Under the pieces are notes generated by a model that saw only the letters and a list, made by a program, of their open reading frames with translations, ran no database searches and was not told the origin of the DNA. Below are positions 2,728-53,790 of a stretch of 64,000 nucleotides of DNA, in pieces. Location: the NCBI GenBank assembly GCA_026388815.1, contig JAPLJA010000080.1, forward strand, positions 1,838 through 65,837. The letters run 5' to 3'. Position 1 is the first letter of the stretch; each line of letters begins with the position of its first letter. This stretch comes from Pseudomonadota bacterium (lineage in GTDB: Bacteria > Desulfobacterota > WTBG01 > JAPLJA01). The position numbers and the translations under genes are program-made.

Positions 2728-5675
2728 GTCAAATGAAATTTTTCGACCTAATAAATGAAATAGATTTGCTACTCTTGAGAAAGCCTACTGATGAAGATTG
2801 TTTGACACAACTTGTAAAACTCGTCACAGATGATGGGTTACGTCGATATTTCTTTGACCATTTGGAAAACCCAGAGTGGATTGGACCACTTAAATCAAAA
2901 GGTTTCTTCAGCAATCCGCCAAAACCAAATCGAGATGAGGATAGGGGTACAATTGGTTTTCCACCCTGGCCTGAATCTCGCTATCTCGCGAGAATGGCAT
3001 CACTTAGTCCCGAGACCGTGACAGAAGTTCTTCTTCAAATTCCTGATACTGATAATGTCAGTGTTCTTGAAGATCTGGTAGATGCTGCATTAAAAATGCC
3101 CCCAGATATCGTGGCCCGGTTAGTGGAAAAAGCTACAGAATGGGCTAGATCCCCATATCAACTTCTTCTACCACGAAAATTAGGTTCGCTTATCGCTCAC
3201 TTTGCAAAAGGTGGACAAGTTGCGGCATCGTTAGACCTCGCAGGTATACTTCTTGAAGTTTTGCCTGATCCCACACAGAAAGATAAATCTGAAACAGAAG
3301 GAGGCTATCGTCTCCCTCCACAGCCGAGAGCACGATTTGATATATGGGAATATCAAAAGATTCTCGAAAAGGATTTTCCCGAGCTTGTTAAATTGGCAGG
3401 ATTACCTGCATTTCAACTGCTCTGTGATCTTCTTGAAACAACTGTTCGTCTTTCACAAAGACGTACAGACAACAAGGGTCCAGAAGATTATTCTCATATC
3501 TGGCGCCCGGCCATTGAAGAGCATGAACAGAACCAACTCTATAGGCTTGAAGATATGTTGGTTTCTGGTGTCCGTGATACAGCCGTTTTTTTAGCAGAAA
3601 CTAAAAAGACCGAAGTTTCCGAACTCATTAAAATTCTTGAGGGTCGGCCTTGGAAGATTTTCTGGCGTATGGCCCTTCATATCATAAGGCTATTTTCAGA
3701 TGAAGTACCCAATATTGTTGCTTCCAAGCTTACTGATCAGGAATTATTTGACGATTACGTGATGCGCCATGAGTATGCACTTCTTTCAGATAAATGTTTT
3801 GGATCGCTTTCACCAGAGCAACAACAGGTTATTTTAAGTTGGATCAAAAAAGCACCTGATCTCCAGGATTTTATTGAATCCCGTGAACAGATGACTGGTA
3901 AGCGACCAACAGACGAAGATGCAGAAAAATACCGAAAGAGATGGCAACTCAGTCGTCTCTCTTGGTTCAAAAGGCATCTCTCTGGAGAATGGAAACAGTA
4001 CTATGATTCCTTGCTGTCAGAATTAGGAGAACCAGAACACCCCGATTTTTTAAGCTACAGTGGCGCAACATGGGTGGGTCCCGCCAGCCCTAAAAGCACG
4101 GAAGAACTTCAGAATATGTCAGTGACTGATATAGTCGTTTTTCTGCAAAACTGGCAACATTCTGGAGATACGAGGGCACCATCACCCGACGGGCTATCTC
4201 GGGAGTTATCAATCGTTGTAGCCCAAGAGCCCAGAAGGTTTTCAACAGAATCTCCGAGGTTTAGAGGACTCGATCCTACCTATGTACGTGGATTGATCAT
4301 AGGCTTTCGTGATGCCCTCAAGCAAAAGCGTACATTTGAGTGGCAACCTGTGTTTGATTTGTGCCAATGGGCGGTTAAACAGCCCTTAGATATTCAAGGT
4401 CAATCTAATAGAATGCAAGATTCTGACCCTGATTGGGGCTGGACACGCAGATCTATTGTCGATCTTCTTTCATCTGGGTTTGAGGAAGGTGAAGGATGTA
4501 TTCATTTTGATCACCGTGGGATAGTTTGGAGTATTTTAAAACCACTTACTGATGATCCTGACCCGACTCCCGAACATGAAGCGAGCTATGGAGGTTCCAA
4601 TATGGATCCAACTTCGCTTTCTATTAATACCACTCGGGGCGAGGCAATGCACACGGTCATACGATATGCCTTGTGGGTCAGCAGACACTTTGAAAAATTA
4701 CCAGATGGTAAAAAAAGGCTTTCCCGGGGATTCAATGAAATGCCAGAAGTAAGAACCATTTTAGAAAAACATCTCGATATATCACAAGACCCGTCACTTG
4801 CAATTCGTTCGGTTTATGGGCAATGGTTTCCCTGGATCGTTCTGCTTGATATGGATTGGGCGAGAAATCACACTAACCAAATTTTTCCTAGCACCGAATC
4901 TGAGAAAGCGTTTTGCGAGGCCGCATGGGATGCATATATCGTATTTTGTCCTCCGTATGACAACGTGTTTGGTATCCTCAGGAAGCAGTACATCGAAGCG
5001 ATTAAAAAGCTAAAAATAGACGCTGAAGAAAAGAGAGGATTGGCTGATCCTCAGGAGAGACTTGCTGAACATCTTATGGCATATTGCTGGCGTGGAATAA
5101 TCAATTTAAAAGACCCCATTCTCACGGAATTCTGGGAACGAGCATCTGACAAGGTAAGAGGGCATGCAATTGCGTATGTTGGAGAAAATCTTCATAGATG
5201 GAAAAAACCGGTGCCGCCTGAAATCTTAAAAAGGTTGCGGGTTCTCTGGGAAACCCGTGTTGCCATTGCAACATCTGCGCCCAACAACCATAAATCAGAA
5301 ATGGCAGCTTTTGGCTGGTGGTTTGCATCGAAGAAATTTGAGAATAAATGGGCCATTAATCAACTTATTGCTGCGCTTAGGCTTACAGGTAACATTGAAC
5401 CCGATCATCTTGTCGCAGAGTGTTTGGCCTCTATTTCTCAAGAGATGCCCAGGGAAACTCTGCAATGCTTTGAGTTAATGATTAAGGGTGACCAAGAGGG
5501 ATGGAGAATCTATGACTGGCGTGAACATTTGAGGATAGTCCTATCGAATACACTTCAAAGTTCCGATCCAGAAACTGTCTCCGCTGCTGAAGATTTCATC
5601 CATTATCTTGGTAGCAAAGGTTGCTTTGAATTCCGCGATCTCCTCCGGAGTAAAAGAGACTCTGATAATAAATGA
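2724..5675 (+). CDS. 983-aa Trp-rich, apparently all-alpha (ARM/HEAT-like) protein of unknown function
   Basis: Long uninterrupted ORF, 4-bp-coupled to the genes on both sides. I could not recognise a P-loop, nuclease, protease or HEPN motif. Confidence 0.8.
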   Translation: MSQMKFFDLINEIDLLLLRKPTDEDCLTQLVKLVTDDGLRRYFFDHLENPEWIGPLKSKGFFSNPPKPNRDEDRGTIGFPPWPESRYLARMASLSPETVTEVLLQIPDTDNVSVLEDLVDAALKMPPDIVARLVEKATEWARSPYQLLLPRKLGSLIAHFAKGGQVAASLDLAGILLEVLPDPTQKDKSETEGGYRLPPQPRARFDIWEYQKILEKDFPELVKLAGLPAFQLLCDLLETTVRLSQRRTDNKGPEDYSHIWRPAIEEHEQNQLYRLEDMLVSGVRDTAVFLAETKKTEVSELIKILEGRPWKIFWRMALHIIRLFSDEVPNIVASKLTDQELFDDYVMRHEYALLSDKCFGSLSPEQQQVILSWIKKAPDLQDFIESREQMTGKRPTDEDAEKYRKRWQLSRLSWFKRHLSGEWKQYYDSLLSELGEPEHPDFLSYSGATWVGPASPKSTEELQNMSVTDIVVFLQNWQHSGDTRAPSPDGLSRELSIVVAQEPRRFSTESPRFRGLDPTYVRGLIIGFRDALKQKRTFEWQPVFDLCQWAVKQPLDIQGQSNRMQDSDPDWGWTRRSIVDLLSSGFEEGEGCIHFDHRGIVWSILKPLTDDPDPTPEHEASYGGSNMDPTSLSINTTRGEAMHTVIRYALWVSRHFEKLPDGKKRLSRGFNEMPEVRTILEKHLDISQDPSLAIRSVYGQWFPWIVLLDMDWARNHTNQIFPSTESEKAFCEAAWDAYIVFCPPYDNVFGILRKQYIEAIKKLKIDAEEKRGLADPQERLAEHLMAYCWRGIINLKDPILTEFWERASDKVRGHAIAYVGENLHRWKKPVPPEILKRLRVLWETRVAIATSAPNNHKSEMAAFGWWFASKKFENKWAINQLIAALRLTGNIEPDHLVAECLASISQEMPRETLQCFELMIKGDQEGWRIYDWREHLRIVLSNTLQSSDPETVSAAEDFIHYLGSKGCFEFRDLLRSKRDSDNK

Positions 5676-6091
5676 AAAAATCTTCCCGTTACGATACCCC
5701 CACCCTCATTGAAGCCCAATTTGAACCTGGTTCCCGCGGCCGGGTACTGAAAAATTTGTTGGGTATTAAAAGCAAGGCAGAGATGGATCGGGTTGAGGCG
5801 GAAGCATTGAAAAGGACTGTGGATGCGTTCGTTCGGGCTTGTGAAAGATCATATCGGTTTACCGCCTCAGGCATCTGCAAAATACACAAGGTGTGGCTGG
5901 GGGGAATTTATGAGTGGGCCGGTAACTACAGAAAAATTAATCTCAGCAAAGGAAAGTTTACCCTTGCATCCGCTATGCAGATTCCTACCTTAATGGAGGA
6001 ATTTGAGAAAGGGCCGCTGTATAAACAGGGACCAGCATTGGGGGCGGGTTCATATTTCTCATATTTCTGTGTACCAGAATGGGCAGGATAG
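5672..6091 (+). pseudogene. Fic/DOC family protein, N-terminal fragment lacking the HxFx(D/E)GNGR motif
   Basis: CKIHKVWLGGIYEWAGNYRKINLSKGKF parallels the E. coli Fic segment IHRQLYQDIFDWAGQLREVDI. The ORF ends before the catalytic loop. Its ATGA overlaps the upstream stop. Confidence 0.55.
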
Positions 6092-6109
6092 TCAGGAAGA
6101 GGATGACGC

Positions 6110-7798
6110 ATGACCCGTGAGGAACTCCTCCAACTGATCACTGAAGTCCAGCGCCACCAGAGCGAGCTGGACGATATAGAAGTAAAATCAGCGCACGGCG
6201 GAACACCACAACGGCTGTATGAGTCCCTCTCTGCATTTGCCAACCGTCCAGGCGGCGGGGTAATGCTGTTTGGACTGGAGGAGGATCGGAATTTTGAAAT
6301 CGTTGGCGTCAGCAATGCACATGATCTACAAAAAATTATCAGTGATTTGGCATCATCTGAAATGGAGCCGCCTTTACGCCCTGACTTTACCGTCGAAGAC
6401 ATTGACGGAAACACGGTCGTAGCCGTTGAGATCTCTGAAATTCCTGCAGAGCAAAAACCGTGTTACTACAAACCGAAAGGTCTGCACAAGGGTTCCTACA
6501 TTCGGGTAGGAAACACGAACCGGCAGATGACGGATTATGAAATCTTTGGCTATGTGAGCGCCCGGACACAACCCACATTCGATGAAGAACCGGTGAAGGA
6601 TGTCACCCTTGAAGACCTGAATCGAGAGAAACTCGATGATTATTTAGTGCAGTTAAGACGAACCCGGCCCGATGCATCATATTTAAACCAGTCATTTGAA
6701 CAGGTGCTGTCACAACTGCGAATCACTCAAAAAGTTGAAGGAGTGCTCCGCCCGACACTGGCCGGCTTACTGGTGTTCGGTAACTACCCCCAGGCCTTCG
6801 AACCCCAACTGGTGATAACCTTCTTACAGTACTACGGCACAACTGAGACAGAAAAGACCCCGCGCGGTGAGCGGTTTTTAGACAACCGTAAATTTGAAGG
6901 AACGATTCCGGAAATGGTAGAAAATGCTGCCAGACATGTGCTGGCAAGTATCCGCAAAAGCAGTCTCATTGAAGGGTTATGGCGACGTGACATACCGGAA
7001 TATCCTGAGGAGGCTATACGCGAAGCAGTGGTAAACGCAGTAGCACACCGTGACTACAGCAGCTTTGTGCGCGGGAGTTACATCCAGATTCGTCTGTTTG
7101 CCGATCGGTTAGAAATCCAGAACCCAGGGGGTTTGTATGGAAACGTGACGGAAGAAACACTCGAAGAAGAGCAGTCCACCCGCAACCGTGTCTTGATGCG
7201 ACTTATGGAGGACTTGCACCTTGTTGAAAATCGCGGTAGCGGCATTCAAACAATGCTCTCAGCAATGCGCAAAGCCAACCTGGAGCCACCAAAATTTCAG
7301 GACAAAAGATCATCCTTCTGGGTAACGTTTTACAGCCATACATTGATGAGCCCGGATGCAATTACATGGCTGAACCAGTTTGCCGGCTTCCCACTCAATG
7401 ATACACAGCGACTTGCACTTGTATACCTTCGGCACAATAAAAATATGACAAATAGCGACTTCCAACGTTTGAATCACGTGGATTCAGTGACTGCCAATCG
7501 GGAGTTGCGGGGGCTTGTGCAATTGGGTTTAATTGAACAACACGGCACCAGGCGATGGGCATCTTATACCCTGAGGGTACCTGCTGAAGTGAAAATCCCT
7601 ACACCAGCACCACCTAAGACCGATGAAGAAAAGATTTTAGCCTACGTGCAAGAACATGGGTTCATCACTAATTCTGATTGTCGCAATTCGCTTCGTGTAG
7701 AAATTCAGCGTGCCTCTTATTTACTTAAGAAAATGGTCAGAAATAGTTTATTGGAGCGTGAAGGAAAGGGTCGTTGGGCGCGTTACCGTCTACCATAG
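6110..7798 (+). CDS. AlbA_2 (Schlafen-like) + HATPase_c_4 + C-terminal wHTH protein (COG2865-type)
   Basis: N-terminal ELDDIEVKSAHGG...LSAFANRPGGGVMLFGLEEDRNFEIVGV (AlbA_2). Central REAVVNAVAHRDYS...LEIQNPGGL (HATPase_c_4). Helix-turn-helix-like tail. Confidence 0.75.
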   Translation: MTREELLQLITEVQRHQSELDDIEVKSAHGGTPQRLYESLSAFANRPGGGVMLFGLEEDRNFEIVGVSNAHDLQKIISDLASSEMEPPLRPDFTVEDIDGNTVVAVEISEIPAEQKPCYYKPKGLHKGSYIRVGNTNRQMTDYEIFGYVSARTQPTFDEEPVKDVTLEDLNREKLDDYLVQLRRTRPDASYLNQSFEQVLSQLRITQKVEGVLRPTLAGLLVFGNYPQAFEPQLVITFLQYYGTTETEKTPRGERFLDNRKFEGTIPEMVENAARHVLASIRKSSLIEGLWRRDIPEYPEEAIREAVVNAVAHRDYSSFVRGSYIQIRLFADRLEIQNPGGLYGNVTEETLEEEQSTRNRVLMRLMEDLHLVENRGSGIQTMLSAMRKANLEPPKFQDKRSSFWVTFYSHTLMSPDAITWLNQFAGFPLNDTQRLALVYLRHNKNMTNSDFQRLNHVDSVTANRELRGLVQLGLIEQHGTRRWASYTLRVPAEVKIPTPAPPKTDEEKILAYVQEHGFITNSDCRNSLRVEIQRASYLLKKMVRNSLLEREGKGRWARYRLP

Positions 7799-45972: not shown

Positions 45973-46383
45973 TCAACTCTCGATTAAGAATCCCTCTCTC
46001 GCAAGATATTCTTTTGGCTTTATTATTTCGATTCCTTCGTATATATGCAAATTTAGTAAATGTCTGTCTCCTGAAATAATGTAGTCTGCCTTACCGTCGA
46101 TAGCGCACTCAAGAAAAATATTATCGGTTGGATCTACCGTAATTAACGAAATCTTGCTCTTGGTTTCTAACAGCTCAGCACAGTTTCTTAAGTTTGTTAC
46201 AAATGGGATGACCTCTTGAGGTGAGAGTCCAAATTTTGAATAACCCAATACGCGCATAAACTCTCTTTCCATTTCTTTGCTGAGAAGCATAGTCAGCTTC
46301 CCATCACGTATCAGATTATAAACCCTTCGTGGATAGCCATCCCGGAAAAATGCAGCAATCGTAACATTCGTATCCAGGACAAT
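45973..46383 (-). CDS. PIN-domain toxin; the conserved N-terminus has no canonical start codon
   Basis: The track ORF starts at Met 46290, but the same frame is open upstream and encodes KRIVLDTNVTIAAFF.. (the PIN catalytic Asp box). Only ATT, ATC or CTG are available as starts. C-terminal ..DNIFLECAIDGKADYIISGDRHLL. Confidence 0.55.
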   Translation of the reverse strand: MVLDTNVTIAAFFRDGYPRRVYNLIRDGKLTMLLSKEMEREFMRVLGYSKFGLSPQEVIPFVTNLRNCAELLETKSKISLITVDPTDNIFLECAIDGKADYIISGDRHLLNLHIYEGIEIIKPKEYLAREGFLIES

Positions 46384-46388
46384 CCTTT

Positions 46389-46622
46389 TTAATGAATACC
46401 CCGTGATTCATGGATTATCTTTTCAATATCCTCCTCAGTCAGTTTATTGAACCCTTTTCCCTCTGCAAGGGATTCTGCATAGCTGTATATCTCCGATTCT
46501 TCGACTGGTATCAACATCACATCAAAAACCTTTCCGACTTCTTTTGCCGCATCATCTGGCAATGAAAGATGCCCATCTGGCAAAACCCGACCTATGAATC
46601 TGCGTGTTATTGTTGTTTTCAT
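46389..46622 (-). CDS. Putative antitoxin (small, AbrB/SpoVT-like N-terminus)
   Basis: 77 aa, immediately upstream of the PIN gene. GRVLPDGHLSLPDDAAKEVGKVFDVMLIP resembles a swapped-hairpin DNA-binding fold. Confidence 0.4.
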   Translation of the reverse strand: MKTTITRRFIGRVLPDGHLSLPDDAAKEVGKVFDVMLIPVEESEIYSYAESLAEGKGFNKLTEEDIEKIIHESRGIH

Positions 46623-46909: not shown

Positions 46910-49900
46910 TTACCTCAAACTGTGAAATACACGTGGAGCAGCTGATACCGGGCCATGTAATGTTGAAGTACCATTGAGGTCGATGTCTTCAAGTTTGTAG
47001 TAATAGGTCTTACGGTTCTGAACATTCTCATCAACAAACTGATATGTCGCTCCCTGCGTGGCAGATCCCTGGGCTGGAATCAATGAGGAATTGATCTTTA
47101 CGTATTCACCATTTTCTGATTCAGCGCGGTAGAGGTTAAAACCTGCATTGTCGATTTCAGAGGCGGTAGTCCATTTGAGAATGATTGCTCGGTCAGAGGG
47201 GGTGGTGGTGAAGGAGGAAAGGGTGATTAACGTCGGTTCACACGCATCACCTATCCCATCGCCATCTGAATCCTGTTGACCGGGGTTAGAAATGTTGGGG
47301 CAGTTGTCAACTATATCTGCTATCCCATCGCCATCGGAATCCATTAAGGCAATAAAATCCATACCGGTTACATCTGCATCAATAACATCAATTGTCTGGC
47401 TCAGCGGATCAAAGGCATAACCGGAAAGGGATGGTGTAATGGTGTATGAACCGTTGAACACTCCGGGGAAAATGTAATTCCCGGCAGAATCGGTTGTGGT
47501 GGTCATTGAGAAGGTACCGGATAGAGCCAGGGTAATACCTTCCAGTACATCCCCCGTTACCGTGCCAGATAGTGAGTAGGTAGGAACAGAATCAGGATCA
47601 AGAGGGTCAGAGCCTCTCTGAATCTCAATATAATCGCTGTAACTGTCTTCGTCGGTATCGTTCAGTAATGGGCTCGTCCCTCGAATATACTCTTCACCGT
47701 CGTTGAGACCATCACTATCTGTATCCGGGTTGCTCAAGTCAGTCCCTAAAGATGTTTCCTGGACATCAGTGAGCCCGTCATGATCACGGTCGTCGTTGGT
47801 TGCAAAGTTAGAGAGGAAGCTTTCTGTCCCGTCTGACATCACTGCTGAAACAGCATATACCCTGGTTGTAACTGATGAATTTTCTACCCAAGGGTGGTTG
47901 GTATAAAAGGAACTGACGGTTGAGGTTCCCAGTTGGGAGGGGTATGGCTCATCTATTTGTTTTGAGTAGATTATGTATCCTGTTGCCTCAGGATATGCGC
48001 TTGCATCCCAGGTGAGCTTTGTTATTAGGCCGCCTGAATCCAGGGGATCTGCCTGAAGTCCAGTGGGGGGAGAGGGTACATTTACCGTAATCCTGTCATC
48101 CGATGTTGAGTCTACGGTGAAAGAAATGTTGGTAGTAGTAGCGTGGTTAAAGCCCCAGTATTCCCTGTTCACAGCCTTTTCTGAGTCAGAATAGCTCAAG
48201 GCCAAGCGATAATCTTCTTGATAGGCGTCTTTAAGATAGAGGGTGTACAGACCATCAGCCGTATTTTTGATGCTTATTGTTCCACCGTCCTTATCTATTG
48301 AGATTATACTATCGGGGATTTCATCTTCCCGTATATCAGTTGCTGGATTAATGCCACTTTTTCTACCGAGAGGATCTATGAGGTAGGGCTGGACCCGTCC
48401 TCGCACCGAGATTGTCATCCTAGGCGTGTCAGGAGCACCGCCAGACAAGAGATAATTACTCGAACCTGTCATAAGCGGAGAAGATGCTGGTGTTTTACCT
48501 GTAATAAACTCTACAATCTCATTACTGTATGTAGTGATTAATTCGCTGTGCTTACCCTCCTTCTCATCAACAGAGTCCATCCCTGAGATGATGGCGCTGT
48601 TTTTAAGGACAGTCCCATCACCTTCCCCTGTTTTTGTTGGATCACCTTTTGGTACGCCATCCTTATATAGGTTATTTGGCTTCCCAACATCAATTACCTC
48701 AATAGTATTTTTATTTATCCCTGCAAATATTTTAACTTCCTTGACTGAGAGGGCAAGATTCCTATTCAATGTAATGAGACTCTTATTGTAACTTTCAAGG
48801 TCACCAATGCTTAATAATGGCGTGCATTCTGAACCGAGCGGAGAGAAAAAGCATTGCCTTAAAAACGGATAGGTTGGCAAAAGCTCTCTTACCGATTTTA
48901 CGTGTTCATGCACGAAATCTCTTATCAGAATATTATTTGGTTTTATAACTACGGCGGGGGTGCTCTGGGCATGTGTTTCAAAGTTTGAAAACGCCCTTTT
49001 ATTCATTTCCTTATAGATATTCTCCAAAACATTCGTATATAAATTAATGAAAAAATCACTCAATCCATCATTCAAGTTGTCAGCCAGTTTTGGGTCCCCG
49101 CCTTCCCAGATGTAGTAGGCATTGGCAGCCCCCTGGTTTGGTGTGCCCACCATGGCAAACCTGTCAATGTCTTTCTGGTAGTCACTGCTCTGAATGTAGG
49201 ATCTCACCACAAGCCCGCCCATGCTGTGGGCAATGATGTGTACCTTGTCAGTACCAGCGATATCTTGGGCTCTGTCAATCCATCGCTTGAGGTAATTTTT
49301 AGCACAATCGTCTATTTCTAATCTCCAGTCATAGGGCACAGGGAAAATGTTGCACCCAACCTCATAATTGGGGTCTACGGATTTAATCTTTTCCGCCAGC
49401 AGTTTCCAGCCTGGCTTGCTGTCAGGTTGGCCGGAGTTATAGTCAAACAATCCGTTAAATACTTTATCTCCAGATTTTCTCCATCTTATGTCATACCATG
49501 GAGGTGAATCGGCAGGCAGAGTGGGATAGTTTTGGTCTGCTGTGGTGGAACCCATAATACCCGGTACAAGCAATATAGGGGTTAAGCCTGTAGGATTACA
49601 TGCGCTTCCCAGTATAACCAAATCCTGGCCGACACACTGATTGCTTGGGAGACATAGTGGAAATGTTTCGCTTACTCTGCTCTCTTTTACTGCCCAGAGA
49701 GAATAGTATCCGGATGAAACAGGTGGAAACTGGTAGTTGCCATTGCTGTTTGTGGTTGTCGAAAGTTGATTGGTCCCCCCATCATCCAACCATACGGTGG
49801 CACCTTCTATTCTATTTCCGCTGCCATCTCTCACGGTTCCGCCCAGAGAGGAAAGATTTGAAATTCCTCCTGTTATGCTAAAGGAGTTACTCTCCCCTGA

Positions 49901-50965
49901 TTTACCACCACCATTTGTTCTGATGTTTATACTGTTTCCGGGACTATCGAGCTTTACAGAAAGCGTAGCAGTGCCATTAGTAAAGTAAGCTTTCATCGGG
50001 CTTACCATACCGATTGTGGCACTCAAAATAGCTTCCCCGTTAAATTGTGTTGCTGTATCGCCATTCCTATCCTTTGCATTAATGGTGATCACAAAGGGTA
50101 CGTTAACAGTCTGGGGGGATGTGATGGAAGAAAAAGAAAAATGATCAAGCAAACCATAGGCCGTAAAATCCTGCCCAGTTACATTGCTTCCTGAGATGTT
50201 TACAATTCTTGATGGAGGATTAAAGGTATATCCCGTTAGACTGGGCGTTATAGTGTATGTGCCGTCGGCAAGGTCAGTGAAAGAGTACGTTCCATCAGAG
50301 ACCGTTGTAGTGGTTTTTGAGACCGTTCCAGACAAGGTCACAGTGACACCGGCCAGGCCGGAGCCGTTGTAGGTAACGCTGCCGGAAATAACCAAATTAC
50401 CAAATGACCCAGACTGTCCCGCGCGAACAGGCCAGACGTAGTAGTAGTAGCCGGACTTATTGCTGTTGTGCACGTAGCCAAAACACATACTGACGATCCA
50501 CGCGTAGCCCGGGTTGCTGGCGTAGCTCGTAGAAGACCAGTAATAGCCGGCCTGCACATTGGTAAAGGGATGCCCGGCGGGTAAGGCTGGCGAGTATTGT
50601 GAAAAGTCAGTCAGGCTGTGTATTTCCTTCAGGTTGGGAAGACGCCAGTCATGATAGCCGTAATTGGGATAGGTTCCGGCATTCATCCCTGCCACATAAT
50701 TCAGCGCTTGCTGCCAGTTCATGTATCCATTAGGAAGATTTGCATTCTTTGTCCACATCAGGCCGGTGAGATTATCGGTTGCCGTGCCATTTCCATGATC
50801 GGCAAACCGTGGCACAGGCCAGGCAACACCTCTTTCCAGGTCGCCGTCATCGCCGCTGTAATAACTCGCTTTCTGCCCTGTTTCCCATATCGGCGCCGGT
50901 TGGCAAAATGCCGCGCTCGCCAAAGCCGTAACCAAAATCACAACAAAACATATTATCTTTTTCAT
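46910..50965 (-). CDS. 1351-aa secreted multidomain protein (DGR target 2): N-terminal DUF1566 domain carrying VR2, beta-sandwich/Ig-like domains, alpha/beta-hydrolase (lipase-like), thrombospondin-type-3-like Ca-binding repeats, FN3-like C-terminus
   Basis: Start at internal MKKIICFVVILVTALASAAF (ATG 50965, GGAGGG upstream, 2 nt after the RT stop). GxSxG nucleophile elbow in HIIAHSMGGLVV (Ser codon 49223-49225). DTDSDGLNDGEE and DSDGDGIADIVDNCPNISNPGQQDSDGDGIGDAC repeats. Confidence 0.85.
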   Translation of the reverse strand: MKKIICFVVILVTALASAAFCQPAPIWETGQKASYYSGDDGDLERGVAWPVPRFADHGNGTATDNLTGLMWTKNANLPNGYMNWQQALNYVAGMNAGTYPNYGYHDWRLPNLKEIHSLTDFSQYSPALPAGHPFTNVQAGYYWSSTSYASNPGYAWIVSMCFGYVHNSNKSGYYYYVWPVRAGQSGSFGNLVISGSVTYNGSGLAGVTVTLSGTVSKTTTTVSDGTYSFTDLADGTYTITPSLTGYTFNPPSRIVNISGSNVTGQDFTAYGLLDHFSFSSITSPQTVNVPFVITINAKDRNGDTATQFNGEAILSATIGMVSPMKAYFTNGTATLSVKLDSPGNSINIRTNGGGKSGESNSFSITGGISNLSSLGGTVRDGSGNRIEGATVWLDDGGTNQLSTTTNSNGNYQFPPVSSGYYSLWAVKESRVSETFPLCLPSNQCVGQDLVILGSACNPTGLTPILLVPGIMGSTTADQNYPTLPADSPPWYDIRWRKSGDKVFNGLFDYNSGQPDSKPGWKLLAEKIKSVDPNYEVGCNIFPVPYDWRLEIDDCAKNYLKRWIDRAQDIAGTDKVHIIAHSMGGLVVRSYIQSSDYQKDIDRFAMVGTPNQGAANAYYIWEGGDPKLADNLNDGLSDFFINLYTNVLENIYKEMNKRAFSNFETHAQSTPAVVIKPNNILIRDFVHEHVKSVRELLPTYPFLRQCFFSPLGSECTPLLSIGDLESYNKSLITLNRNLALSVKEVKIFAGINKNTIEVIDVGKPNNLYKDGVPKGDPTKTGEGDGTVLKNSAIISGMDSVDEKEGKHSELITTYSNEIVEFITGKTPASSPLMTGSSNYLLSGGAPDTPRMTISVRGRVQPYLIDPLGRKSGINPATDIREDEIPDSIISIDKDGGTISIKNTADGLYTLYLKDAYQEDYRLALSYSDSEKAVNREYWGFNHATTTNISFTVDSTSDDRITVNVPSPPTGLQADPLDSGGLITKLTWDASAYPEATGYIIYSKQIDEPYPSQLGTSTVSSFYTNHPWVENSSVTTRVYAVSAVMSDGTESFLSNFATNDDRDHDGLTDVQETSLGTDLSNPDTDSDGLNDGEEYIRGTSPLLNDTDEDSYSDYIEIQRGSDPLDPDSVPTYSLSGTVTGDVLEGITLALSGTFSMTTTTDSAGNYIFPGVFNGSYTITPSLSGYAFDPLSQTIDVIDADVTGMDFIALMDSDGDGIADIVDNCPNISNPGQQDSDGDGIGDACEPTLITLSSFTTTPSDRAIILKWTTASEIDNAGFNLYRAESENGEYVKINSSLIPAQGSATQGATYQFVDENVQNRKTYYYKLEDIDLNGTSTLHGPVSAAPRVFHSLR
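50417..50562 (-). other. DGR variable region VR2
   Basis: Hand alignment to the TR over 146 nt gives 19 differences at TR adenines and 1 non-adenine difference. The 3' end GTTCGCGCGGGA is identical to the TR. Confidence 0.85.
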
Positions 50966-50967
50966 CG

Positions 50968-52602
50968 TTAGCCCTCCTGGGGTATCAGTTTCGCTACCGG
51001 CAGGCGTTCCTTTATCCTGCCCAGGTATCTTCCTGTCTCCTTGATGATTACAACCGGTAGACCTTTTCTCAGCAGTCTTCCCGCATACTCCTTTTCGAGC
51101 CTTACCGGAAAACCGTATGTGACCGGTCTCGTTCTCGCGGTAATGCTCCGAAGTCCGAGGATGTTTTGCACCTCCGCTTTTATTTCGGAGTAGCATTCAA
51201 AAAAACACCCCACCTGGAAGAACATGAACATGCCCTTGAACATGTTTGCATAATGTAAATACTGGCTTTTTACAGAAGAAAAGAGGTGTGTTGGTTTTAT
51301 GGCATAATTGCGGGGAATCACTTTATCGTTGTCAAAATGGAAATATTCTCTTAAAAATGAATATCTTTGTATGATGGTCTGTTTAAGCCGGTATGCATCC
51401 GCCCACTTGAGATGGCCGAAATACGAGGCGATGACAGAACGGAGCCGGTTGATAAGTTCGTAGTCATACCTGATAATGCGTAACCCGTCATGCTCCGAGA
51501 TCAACCGCTGTTGAAACCATTCTAATTTTTCCCTCAGGTTATTCACCACCCTCCTCCGTACCAGCAGGTAATCTTCCCGGATGATATAGCCTAAAAAATC
51601 TATGCCGTTTGACACCGGCAGGATTCTTCCGTGCTTTTCGTTGAGTGATAGGTTGAGCTGGCGTGACACAAACCCGCTGATTTTTTCCTTTGCTTCTGTT
51701 AGAAATTCCGGTGATTCATGGAGGATGACAAAATCGTCACAGTACCGTACATAGTACCGGCATTTCAAGGTATGCTTTACAAACTGATCAAGTGCGTTGA
51801 GATAGACGTTGGCGAAGAACTGACTGGTGAGGTTGCCGATAGGCAGACCTCTGTTCTCCGGCGCGCTGAACAAGCTCTTCTGAACGGGAATCCGTTCACG
51901 CAAGTGCTTCTTTCCTTTGATGATGCAATGATCCGTGGGACGATGGAATATGATGGTGTGGGCAAACGAGCGCATCTGTTCATCCCCTACCTTCTTTTCA
52001 ACGATCCGATAAAGGATCTCTTTGTCAATTGACATGAAAAAATTCTTAATATCCAGATGCATGAAATAGAGCCTTTTTCTGCCGTTCCGGCTGCCTTGCC
52101 GTATGAAGCCGCGCAAACGTTCCACTGCCTTGTGTAACCCTTTATCCTTCCGGCATGCATAGGAGTCGTAGATAAAAACAGGTTCAAAGATGGATTCCAG
52201 TCTTTCGACCAGGATGTGGTGAACGACCCTGTCCCTGAAATCGGCGGCTATAATCTCTCTCATCTTCGGTCGTTCAACCATGAAGCAGACAGAACGGGTG
52301 GGCTGATAGGTTCCCTGTTGGAGCTCTTCTGAAAGGTTTAAGAGATTCTCTTCGGCGTTTATCTCAAATTTCAGGCAATTGATGGTGTTCCGTTTATGTT
52401 TCCTGCATGTGAGATAATTCCGGTACAGATTTTCAAAAGAGAAGAGGGGAGGCAGCCACTCTCCCGCGCGAACAGGCCAGACGTAGTTGTTGTTGTTGGA
52501 CTTATTGTTGTTGTTCACGTTGCCATTCCACATATTGACGATCCACGCGTTGTCCGGGTTGTTGGCGTTGCTCGTAGAAGACCAGTAATTGTTGGCCTGC
52601 AC
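50968..52602 (-). CDS. DGR reverse transcriptase with C-terminal MutS-domain-I-like extension (the ORF as drawn includes the TR at its 5' end)
   Basis: LPIGNLTSQFFANVYL (DGR-specific I/LGxxxSQ), RYCDDFVIL (YxDD), N-terminal LFSFENLYRNYLTCRKHKRN. The last ~100 aa, ..FFQVGCFFECY..GLR...R......GFP......Y...LL.KG..V, resemble MutS domain I. Confidence 0.9.
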   Translation of the reverse strand: MQANNYWSSTSNANNPDNAWIVNMWNGNVNNNNKSNNNNYVWPVRAGEWLPPLFSFENLYRNYLTCRKHKRNTINCLKFEINAEENLLNLSEELQQGTYQPTRSVCFMVERPKMREIIAADFRDRVVHHILVERLESIFEPVFIYDSYACRKDKGLHKAVERLRGFIRQGSRNGRKRLYFMHLDIKNFFMSIDKEILYRIVEKKVGDEQMRSFAHTIIFHRPTDHCIIKGKKHLRERIPVQKSLFSAPENRGLPIGNLTSQFFANVYLNALDQFVKHTLKCRYYVRYCDDFVILHESPEFLTEAKEKISGFVSRQLNLSLNEKHGRILPVSNGIDFLGYIIREDYLLVRRRVVNNLREKLEWFQQRLISEHDGLRIIRYDYELINRLRSVIASYFGHLKWADAYRLKQTIIQRYSFLREYFHFDNDKVIPRNYAIKPTHLFSSVKSQYLHYANMFKGMFMFFQVGCFFECYSEIKAEVQNILGLRSITARTRPVTYGFPVRLEKEYAGRLLRKGLPVVIIKETGRYLGRIKERLPVAKLIPQEG

Positions 52603-52607
52603 ATTTG
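52462..52607 (-). other. DGR template region (TR)
   Basis: The coding strand encodes NVQANNYWSSTSNANNPDNAWIVNMWNGNVNNNNKSNNNNYVWPVRAG with 17 AAY (Asn) codons. It is about 86% identical to VR1 and VR2, with mismatches confined to its adenines. Confidence 0.9.
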
Positions 52608-52755
52608 CCCACCCACTTTGAGTTCTTCACCAGGCAATTCCTTGAAGGATATGCCTGATTGCCAGCTAATGCCCGCCTTCGGCGGGCGGGATGGGCGCAC
52701 AGTGGTTTGTCTCTGCACACCTGCCAGTCTCGATATGATAAAGGCAGTTCTGGCA

Positions 52756-53148
52756 TCATCCACCCTCCTGGTTGTTTCTTATCCAGCCTTCGTTCTGTCT
52801 GCTCATGGAGATTGTTTCTTCGATGGCATGTTGAAAGGAATCAAAGTTTTTAAATGCCTTCACCTCCTTGCATATCCTGAGGGTAACCTTGAGATCTTCT
52901 ATGGTATCCCTGAGTATGGCCAGGGTTGTCTGTTTATCCCGTTCAGAGTTTGCCCTGATAACAAGCCTGACCACCTCACGGGACAGACTCCTCACGTCTG
53001 TTCCCAGTGTATATTTATGATACCGTGAGAATCCTCTCACAATATTTTCAAGGTAGATGGTTAAATCCATAGCCTTCTTGTAGAGGGGAAGATGTTCGTA
53101 CTGTGCCATAAAATCATAAAAAATATTTTCAAATAACCGAATAATCAA
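52756..53148 (-). CDS. avd: DGR accessory variability determinant (Avd, four-helix-bundle family)
   Basis: HLPLYKKAMDLTIYLENIVRGFSRYHKYTLGTDVR...VIRAN... has the Avd-like pattern, and the gene sits between target 1 and the TR. The track start is TTG; an alternative ATG lies at 53109. Confidence 0.75.
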   Translation of the reverse strand: MIIRLFENIFYDFMAQYEHLPLYKKAMDLTIYLENIVRGFSRYHKYTLGTDVRSLSREVVRLVIRANSERDKQTTLAILRDTIEDLKVTLRICKEVKAFKNFDSFQHAIEETISMSRQNEGWIRNNQEGG

Positions 53149-53157
53149 ATAACCTAA

Positions 53158-53730
53158 TCACTGTCCCGCGCGAACAGGCCAGACGTAGTAGCTGCCGTAG
53201 GACTTATAGTTGTAGCCCACGCGGCCATTCCACATACCGACGATCCACGCGTCGTCCGGGTAGAAGGCGTAGCTCGTAGAAGACCAGTAATTGTCGGCCT
53301 GCACATTGGTAAAACCCTGAGAGCTAAGCCAGGTGGCTGAATTAGCTTCTTCTCTATTGATGAGGCTTTCCAGCTCATTCACACTGGGTAAGCGCCAGTC
53401 GGTGTAGCCGCACAGGTTTAGATTGTTACAGTCATCAACGGCCTGATACCAGGTCCTGATGCCATTTGGAAGATTGGCATTCTTAGCCCACATCAGGCCG
53501 GTAAGGGTATCGGTGACGCAGTCACCATTTACCTGAAACCTTGGGCTCGGCGGGGCTACACCAGCCTGAATGGCGCCGTCCTGCCCGGTGCCCGGACAGG
53601 GGATTTGATTTCCGGCTGTGTCATAGCATTTCTTCTGGCCGGTTTTTGGAAGGTTGACGGTGCCGGCAAGGGCAAGACCGGATACGAAGAACAGTAATAT
53701 TACGGTTAAAGAAAGGATTCGGTTTTTCAT
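53158..53730 (-). CDS. DGR target 1: secreted single-domain DUF1566 protein with C-terminal VR1
   Basis: Signal peptide MKNRILSLTVILLFFVSGLALA, then LPKTGQKKCYD..GTGQDGAIQAGV...DTLTGLMWAK..DWRLPSVNELESL...YWSSTSYAFYPDDAWIVGMWNGRVGYNYKSYGSYYVWPVRAGQ*. Confidence 0.85.
   Translation of the reverse strand: MKNRILSLTVILLFFVSGLALAGTVNLPKTGQKKCYDTAGNQIPCPGTGQDGAIQAGVAPPSPRFQVNGDCVTDTLTGLMWAKNANLPNGIRTWYQAVDDCNNLNLCGYTDWRLPSVNELESLINREEANSATWLSSQGFTNVQADNYWSSTSYAFYPDDAWIVGMWNGRVGYNYKSYGSYYVWPVRAGQ
53164..53309 (-). other. DGR variable region VR1
   Basis: Hand alignment to the TR over 146 nt gives 20 differences, every one at a TR adenine (T on the printed strand). Confidence 0.9.
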
Positions 53731-53790
53731 TTTACCCCCATTTTTATCACCCAAAGAAATTATCCGCCTCCGGCGGACCAAACGTTTTGT

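Follow-up and report, generated by a model that had tools for sequence, protein, structure and literature searches.

What would a domain of the mismatch-repair (MMR) protein MutS be doing at the end of the reverse transcriptase (RT) of a diversity-generating retroelement (DGR)? The question is raised by a 64,000-nucleotide stretch of bacterial DNA from the Desulfobacterota (assembly GCA_026388815.1, contig JAPLJA010000080.1; hereafter the window), which carries a DGR whose RT extends well beyond its thumb. An earlier note on this DNA had claimed that the extension is a C-terminal MutS-domain-I-like module that keeps the Phe-x-Glu mismatch motif, and this has been borne out by profile, alignment and fold, such that the tail is almost certainly a genuine MutS domain I, with a similarity far beyond chance. 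The positions given for this element are those of the window throughout, and the DGR cassette is read on the minus strand.

The MutS domain I tail of the reverse transcriptase

The RT open reading frame (ORF) occupies 50968..52602 on the minus strand and is uninterrupted, being listed with 544 codons over a span that includes the stop codon. The DGR RT proper, with its fingers, palm and thumb, lies at 51340..52461, as delimited by the Pfam RVT_1 match (RT residues 113-341), the AlphaFold2 (AF2) model, the match to the Bordetella phage BPP-1 enzyme bRT and the RT motifs, which include IGNLTSQ at residues 255-261 (51820-51840) and YCDD at residues 287-290 (51733-51744). The [I/L]GxxxSQ signature marks the DGR clade of RTs. 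The thumb is followed by a poorly conserved linker (51274..51339, from the alignment and the full-length model) and then by the MutS domain I module, which was placed at 50980..51273 (ORF residues ~444-541) by Pfam, NCBIfam, profile and AF2/Foldseek results; the range claimed earlier, 50968-51290, was accurate.

Both kinds of search that had been proposed as checks, profile and structure, support the homology. The Pfam MutS_I family (PF01624) matches residues 445-523 with 25.8 bits for the whole RT, against a curated gathering cut-off of 20.6 bits, rising to 29.3 bits (E = 1.1e-6) when only the last 117 residues are used. Two NCBIfam MutS equivalog models align through their own positions 5-87 only, which correspond to the N-terminal mismatch-binding domain, and give the RT 22-28 bits against cut-offs of 480-642. 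When the tail was compared with all PDB sequences by phmmer, Thermus aquaticus (Taq) MutS was found at E = 1e-5, with FQVGCFFECY of the tail lying over FQVGDFYECF; a profile built from 34 tails raised this match to 2.7e-11 and also reached E. coli MutS (~7e-6) and MSH6 (1.4e-4). The G-C-F-F-E mismatch-contact motif of the tail (ORF residues 465-469, 51196..51210) is thereby aligned to G37-D-F39-Y-E41 of Taq MutS, with Phe467 (codon 51202-51204) and Glu469 (codon 51196-51198) falling on Phe39 and Glu41 in the HMMER alignment. This Phe-x-Glu motif occurs in MutS and MSH6 and is absent from MSH2 and MSH3.

The predicted structure agrees with the sequence comparison. In the AF2 model of the tail (pLDDT 92.2), a helix is followed by a beta-hairpin, then by a helix, a strand and another helix, and last by a long hairpin. 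The top 50 Foldseek matches to it in the PDB comprise only MutS, MSH6 and MSH3, with E values down to 4e-6 and a TM score normalised to the query of 0.72-0.80 for mismatch-binding chains. The full-length RT model is likewise confident (pLDDT 90.2, pTM 0.79), with the linker at pLDDT 74-83. With domain I of the canonical proteins (Taq 1ewq, E. coli 1e3m; MSH6) the tail shares the fold, the Gly-x-Phe-x-Glu hairpin, the G-[FI]-P loop and the terminal beta-strands, at an identity of 18-28%. In contrast to them, the RT ORF stops ~3 residues past domain I, and the connector, lever, clamp, ABC ATPase and HTH regions that make up domains II-V are absent, so that the tail is incapable of MutS-like dimerisation, of ATP hydrolysis and of licensing MutL. 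The closest solved RT core is that of bRT (PDB 8ub7_A; E = 2.7e-23, TMt 0.88, 32% identity), which also has Avd and an adenine-rich template repeat (TR) as partners; bRT differs in that its 328 aa end with the thumb and include no MutS_I module, and in that it is phage-borne whereas the present element is chromosomal.

The earlier note had also raised the possibility that the tail is a separate ORF brought in by a frameshift; on checking, the tail belongs to one RT ORF, in the window as well as in its relatives. A protein search with the RT returned ~8000 relatives, the best 120 of which (49-100% identity, from many independent assemblies) were used for alignment. Nearly all of these span 97-100% of the query, tail included, most have a precomputed PF01624 match, and the MutS_I module is in the same polypeptide as the RT in 117 of the 120. 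A pattern scan with one genome per species gave 116 confirmed relatives, and among the 80 of these that were retained the same-ORF arrangement of RT and module is found in ~45 species genomes, the remainder being genuine MutS genes. An assembly frameshift or a separate ORF is thus ruled out by the continuous ORF of the window together with the same architecture in >115 independent protein clusters of 49-90% identity and ~45 species genomes.

A related and wider proposal, that the tail is either such an artefact or a decaying remnant devoid of function, is extremely improbable. It draws on the decayed copies that are present in related loci, namely split RTs (L012, L027, L036 and L042) and C-terminal pieces that lack avd (L015, L023, L025, L030 and L033), and on the 124-aa protein P0002, the reading frame of which runs upstream into RT thumb sequence and which adjoins a transposase. 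Against it stand the continuous ORF in the window, the conservation of the key residues across the >115 clusters and ~45 species, and the confident fold predicted for both the tail and the full-length protein.

The decayed copies are of some interest by themselves. They are found in many genomes, at the nine loci just named as well as at L062 and at 5839-6372 of L001, some as split ORFs and others as a C-terminal piece of thumb plus MutS_I tail without avd, with one of them beside an IS transposase. P0002 had been considered as a stand-alone MutS-like (MSL) protein and was rejected as such, since the in-frame thumb sequence upstream and the transposase beside it identify it as an RT remnant. 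In the exhaustive HMMER search with the tail profile (4385 proteins at E <= 1e-3, 182 at E <= 1e-10), most of the short matches with enough N-terminal sequence likewise have an RT thumb upstream. The existence of decayed fused RTs therefore means that short "MutS_I-only" proteins in databases are often RT remnants and not MSL genes.

Conservation, spread and relation to stand-alone MutS-like proteins

In the alignment of the best 120 relatives the mean pairwise identity is 62% for the fingers and palm, 50% for the thumb and 42% for the MutS_I module, and the linker shows the lowest conservation, with insertions and deletions. Residues of the mismatch motif were counted in 119 aligned homologues. 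The glycine of G-x-F-x-E is present in all 119; at the stacking position, 83 have Phe, 30 Tyr, five His and one Arg (Phe or Tyr in 95%); and at the acidic position, 112 have Glu and seven Gln (Glu in 94%). Q400 and Y401 (97-98%), the G-F-P loop and R486 are all conserved in at least 96%. The motif was also present in almost all of the best 150 representatives, taken at 50% identity, from the exhaustive HMMER search. The tail family is basic (pI 10.1 +/- 0.5), and the tail in the window has a pI of ~9.9. The MutS_I module is thus under purifying selection that keeps the mismatch-contact residues.

The fusion itself is not new. Wu et al. (2018; NAR 46:11, PMC5758913) reported that ~20% of DGR RTs have C-terminal extensions and that in three related RTs these are MutS_I extensions, described as of "weak sequence identity" and not analysed further. 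The same survey defined MSL as an accessory family of 112-283 aa with a pI of 7.2, present in 16 of 372 DGRs, always alongside avd and never with HRDC. The remark in the earlier note that MutS-like additions had been seen in DGRs was thus correct, on the strength of these three extended RTs and 16 MSL-bearing elements, and so was its statement that they have no assigned function, inasmuch as no functional test of MSL or of the fused tail was found in the literature searched. The idea that such proteins act on the heteroduplex or on mismatch repair is also the field's own working guess. The RTs of Wu et al. have the same layout as the one in the window, a DGR RT followed by a post-thumb Pfam MutS_I region in an avd-containing cassette; the difference is one of scale and depth, with three examples there and >115 protein clusters and ~45 species here, along with fold support and the conserved Phe-x-Glu. 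What is new here is that the fusion constitutes a large cellular clade that is always paired with Avd, instead of three cases, and that it has fold support and conserved base-contacting residues.

Among the taxa over which the clade is spread are the Nitrospirota (Ca. Magnetobacterium, Thermodesulfovibrionales), the Desulfobacterota, the Gammaproteobacteria (Thiohalocapsa, Competibacteraceae, Methylococcales, Thiothrix), the Burkholderiales, the Brocadiaceae of the Planctomycetota, the Hyphomicrobiales and the Acidobacteriota. The earlier note had raised the question whether the tail anticorrelates with Avd, and it does not: in all of the ~30 loci where the fused RT is full-length and the sequence upstream of it is long enough, avd lies just upstream, and the loci without avd are truncated by the contig end or bear decayed RT fragments. 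A search of 50,697 phage genomes with tblastn found no copy of the fusion, and a pattern scan of IMG/VR gave only giant-virus MutS homologues among the matches listed, which does not prove its absence there. On these two results, the second of which covers the matches listed, a phage origin of the fusion was set aside.

Two further observations were made on the search results. A 5.7-Mb contig of a Desulfobacteraceae (CAXXNM010000003.1; loci L024, L029 and L032) carries at least four avd plus RT-MutS_I cassettes at three distant sites, two of the cassettes sharing one 12-kb locus. Among the proteins P0212, P0242, P0255, P0264 and P0211, those of 1329-2410 aa are matched internally by the tail profile at two or three places and one of 401 aa is matched partially at seven; they could be repeats, or relatives of MutS from giant viruses or eukaryotes.

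How the fused tail relates to the stand-alone MSL proteins is a separate matter. The latter, known from Legionella and from the Bacteroides Bfr, Bth and Bun DGRs, are likewise domain I-only proteins linked to avd-containing DGRs. They differ in being encoded by a separate gene and in their neutral pI of 7.2, whereas the tail in the window is fused in frame to the RT and basic, and no ORF lies between the components of the window cassette. A query of a word-indexed protein database with the tail alone gave two matches only and was uninformative, and it was superseded by the full-RT and exhaustive profile searches. The MSL sampling covered one subfamily only (P0271-P0323), which was reached via locus L041 and consists of proteins of ~105-115 aa, nearly all of which have G-x-F-M-Q, where Gln takes the place of Glu. 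At L103-L105 (5001-5345) the MSL adjoins bAvd, a tail-less RT of 348 aa and targets with FGE-sulfatase or caspase domains. Locus L041 itself, from Deltaproteobacteria bacterium TL4, encodes both forms, a stand-alone MSL (3791-4159 of that locus, G-V-F-M-Q) and a fused-tail RT (4753-6303), the avd gene lying in between. This pairing of unlike domain-I modules within a single element is reminiscent of the asymmetric dimer of MutS.

The profile of the MSL subfamily scores 17.7 bits (E = 1e-3) against the RT of the window and the tail profile ~30 bits against MSL, while both score 42-44 bits against Thermus MutS, which hints that the fused tail and MSL are separate captures of MutS domain I. As the canonical MutS set used for comparison was retrieved by a tail-derived peptide pattern and is biased, and as ~100 columns are too few for a tree, no phylogenetic conclusion is drawn on the tail, MSL and MutS. 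In their sequences the two forms differ at the acidic position, the fused form keeping the Glu on which discrimination is expected to depend and the sampled MSL form, with its Gln, lacking it.

The retroelement around the fused gene

The fused RT is part of a complete DGR, with TR and variable repeats (VRs) that obey the adenine rule, a DGR-type RT, Avd and Lcl_C targets bearing the VRs. The order of the components on the minus strand is target 1, bAvd, TR, RT-MutS_I and target 2. A 154-nt repeat (family D1) is present in three copies, with VR1 and TR each 84% identical to the VR2 reference copy. The middle copy (52458-52611) contains 49 A and is rich in AAC codons. It differs from VR1 (53160-53313) and VR2 (50413-50566) by 20 and 19 A-to-N changes, respectively, and by five non-A differences counted per VR, all of them at the repeat edges. 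Since the differences are restricted to adenines of the middle copy, the edges aside, this copy is the TR and the other two are its VRs. The adjacent bAvd gene (52756..53148, minus strand) matches Pfam PF22296 with 41.7 bits against a cut-off of 40. Target gene 1 (53158..53781, minus strand) encodes a small secreted Lcl_C (DUF1566-type) protein (Pfam Lcl_C, 1.1e-31) with VR1 at its C-terminus. On the evidence of these repeats and genes, the DGR is probably active.

Target gene 2 (46910..50965, minus strand) encodes a multidomain surface protein of 1351 aa in which an Lcl_C domain (residues 60-181) is followed by CarboxypepD_reg, SdrD_B and LCAT/abhydrolase (lipase-like) matches. VR2 lies in the N-terminal Lcl_C domain, a placement that Wu et al. 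(2018, PMC5758913) found to be uncommon for VRs. The ATG of this gene (50965) is situated 2 nt past the RT stop codon (TAA, 50970-50968), and the sequence GGAGGG lies inside the last RT codons, which suggests that the RT and target 2 may be translationally coupled. A 1428-aa ORF that had been listed from position 51196, in another frame over the tail, was dismissed as an over-extension, the Shine-Dalgarno sequence and the signal peptide marking the ATG at 50965 as the real start.

At its other end, the RT frame is open through the TR. The in-frame starts upstream of the conserved LFSFENLY are a GTG at 52602, an ATG at 52533 and a GTG at 52518; as all of these are inside the TR, translation of the RT must begin within it. 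Gene calls for homologous RTs likewise begin at the equivalent "MWNG" ATG, and these proteins therefore show a spurious Lcl_C (PF07603) match.

The neighbours of the element are housekeeping genes, among them those for RNase G, HemN-like and other radical-SAM enzymes and an acyl-CoA ligase, and the context is chromosomal, not phage. Directly downstream of target 2 are an ORF with a PIN_3 domain (45976-46290) and a small ORF upstream of it (46392-46622) that has no Pfam match; the two resemble a toxin-antitoxin pair.

What the tail may do

The tail is probably functional, and the role that is proposed for it, tentatively and at slightly less than even odds, is that the tethered domain I engages the mismatched cDNA:VR heteroduplex and blunts the action of host MutS. 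In this model the RT would copy the TR RNA into an adenine-randomised cDNA, with ~20 changes in ~140 nt for the present element, and the pairing of this cDNA with the VR would produce a mismatch-filled heteroduplex of the kind normally recognised and reversed by host MutS. Because the tail is part of the RT, it would reach the heteroduplex in cis with the cDNA, where it could contact the mismatched or kinked duplex via Phe467 and Glu469; lacking the connector, clamp and ATPase domains, it would be unable to license repair that depends on MutL. Overall, the tail would either occlude the heteroduplex and compete with host MutS or stabilise the homeologous pairing, so that the mutagenised strand is fixed and not repaired or rejected.

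Several lines of earlier work would fit such a role. The contacts of MutS with a mispaired base consist of stacking by Phe36 and a hydrogen bond from Glu38; specific binding is lost in F36A, and replacement of Glu38 by Gln in E. coli MutS abolishes the discrimination between matched and mismatched DNA (PMC3848065). In Bacteroides, whose DGRs encode Msl, deletion of host mutS raised retrohoming 5-10 fold and left the mutation pattern unchanged, in an all-or-nothing manner (bioRxiv 10.1101/2024.11.15.621889), an effect consistent with the proposed step at the heteroduplex. In E. coli reconstructions of DGRs, mutS was deleted or a dominant-negative MutL was expressed, and one group cites the MutS-like homologues as the reason. 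The recurrence of MSL genes in DGRs, the suppression of MMR in the E. coli work and the basic character of the tail also speak for the model.

It has to be noted that a number of points weigh against it. There is one tethered domain per RT for ~20 mismatches, and as a single mismatch suffices to trigger MutS repair, a one-to-one shield would be stoichiometrically weak. For DNA binding, domain I of MutS normally needs the clamp domains of a dimer, so that on its own it may bind weakly, and most DGR RTs, bRT included, function without a MutS_I domain. The stacking residue is neither Phe nor Tyr in ~5% of the homologues (five His and one Arg of 119), and Glu is replaced by Gln in 6%. Deletion of mutS was without effect in one E. 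coli reporter, and mutS is reported to be dispensable for Bordetella phage retrohoming, according to the statement cited in PMC5758913.

Other explanations of a conserved, basic domain of MutS descent differ in how much of its conservation they account for. It could be a generic nucleic-acid-binding or ribonucleoprotein-assembly extension, in which the conserved residues would be needed for folding or for non-specific binding. The C-terminal extensions of unknown role on ~20% of DGR RTs (PMC5758913) and the high pI of the tail would agree with this, as would the presence of Tyr, His or Arg in place of Phe in 30% of the homologues and the MSL subfamily with Gln for Glu, the substitution that is reported to deprive MutS of its mismatch discrimination (PMC3848065). 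We consider it unlikely, however, since the mispair-contact residues are among the best conserved of the tail (Gly 100%, aromatic 95%, Glu 94%) and the fold is retained (TM 0.72-0.80).

The tail might instead take part in cDNA synthesis, tracking the minor groove of the RNA:cDNA hybrid as it emerges from the thumb, stabilising A:N mispairs and thereby aiding extension past misincorporations or retention of the template. The position of the domain directly after the thumb on a short linker, in a full-length model that is confident overall (pLDDT 90.2, pTM 0.79), would suit this function, as would the basic tail and the conserved Phe-x-Glu, the Phe of MutS being known to enter from the minor-groove side (PMC3848065). 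Yet bRT (8ub7), with its 328 aa, mutagenises adenines specifically without any such domain, and the stand-alone MSL proteins are not tethered to a polymerase. We know, moreover, of no evidence for a MutS domain I that reads RNA:DNA hybrids, and a role in cDNA synthesis appears quite unlikely. A docking module that brings the RT-cDNA complex to replisome or repair proteins, for instance via the conserved Q-Y helix, and so favours annealing at replication forks, is improbable. Q400 and Y401 are 97-98% conserved, and the Q-Y helix presumably overlaps the N-terminal beta-clamp-binding site of E. coli MutS. The efficiency of DGRs in E. coli depends on the direction of replication (PMC12875486). On the other hand, no interaction is supported by any of the results of the analysis, the QY motif is structural in every MutS domain I, and docking would leave the conservation of Phe-x-Glu unexplained.

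Beyond the proposal that the tail engages the heteroduplex and blunts host MutS, a broader one may be put forward, which we regard as somewhat unlikely. DGRs would have taken up MutS domain I on more than one occasion, as a basic fused Phe-x-Glu form and as a neutral MSL form with Gln, and a large lineage of cellular DGRs would possess, as an integral and separable part of retrohoming, a step that handles the mismatched heteroduplex, with the fused domain acting in cis as a decoy or clamp that lets a strand with ~15% mismatches escape both MutS repair and anti-recombination.

The value of the finding as a discovery is limited because both the fusion and the MMR idea have been published. Its bearing on DGR biology lies elsewhere. 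The replacement of the VR by mutagenised cDNA is the main open question of the field, and the mechanism of retrohoming is still called unknown in recent papers; an RT-attached mismatch-binding domain with conserved base-contacting residues is a natural experiment that points to a heteroduplex step, and Phe467 and Glu469 are clean targets for point mutants. If the tail is indeed a device for handling the heteroduplex, the integration step would become directly accessible to genetics and biochemistry, and if the tail neutralises MMR locally, engineered DGR and retron editors, which now rely on global suppression of MMR, could be improved.

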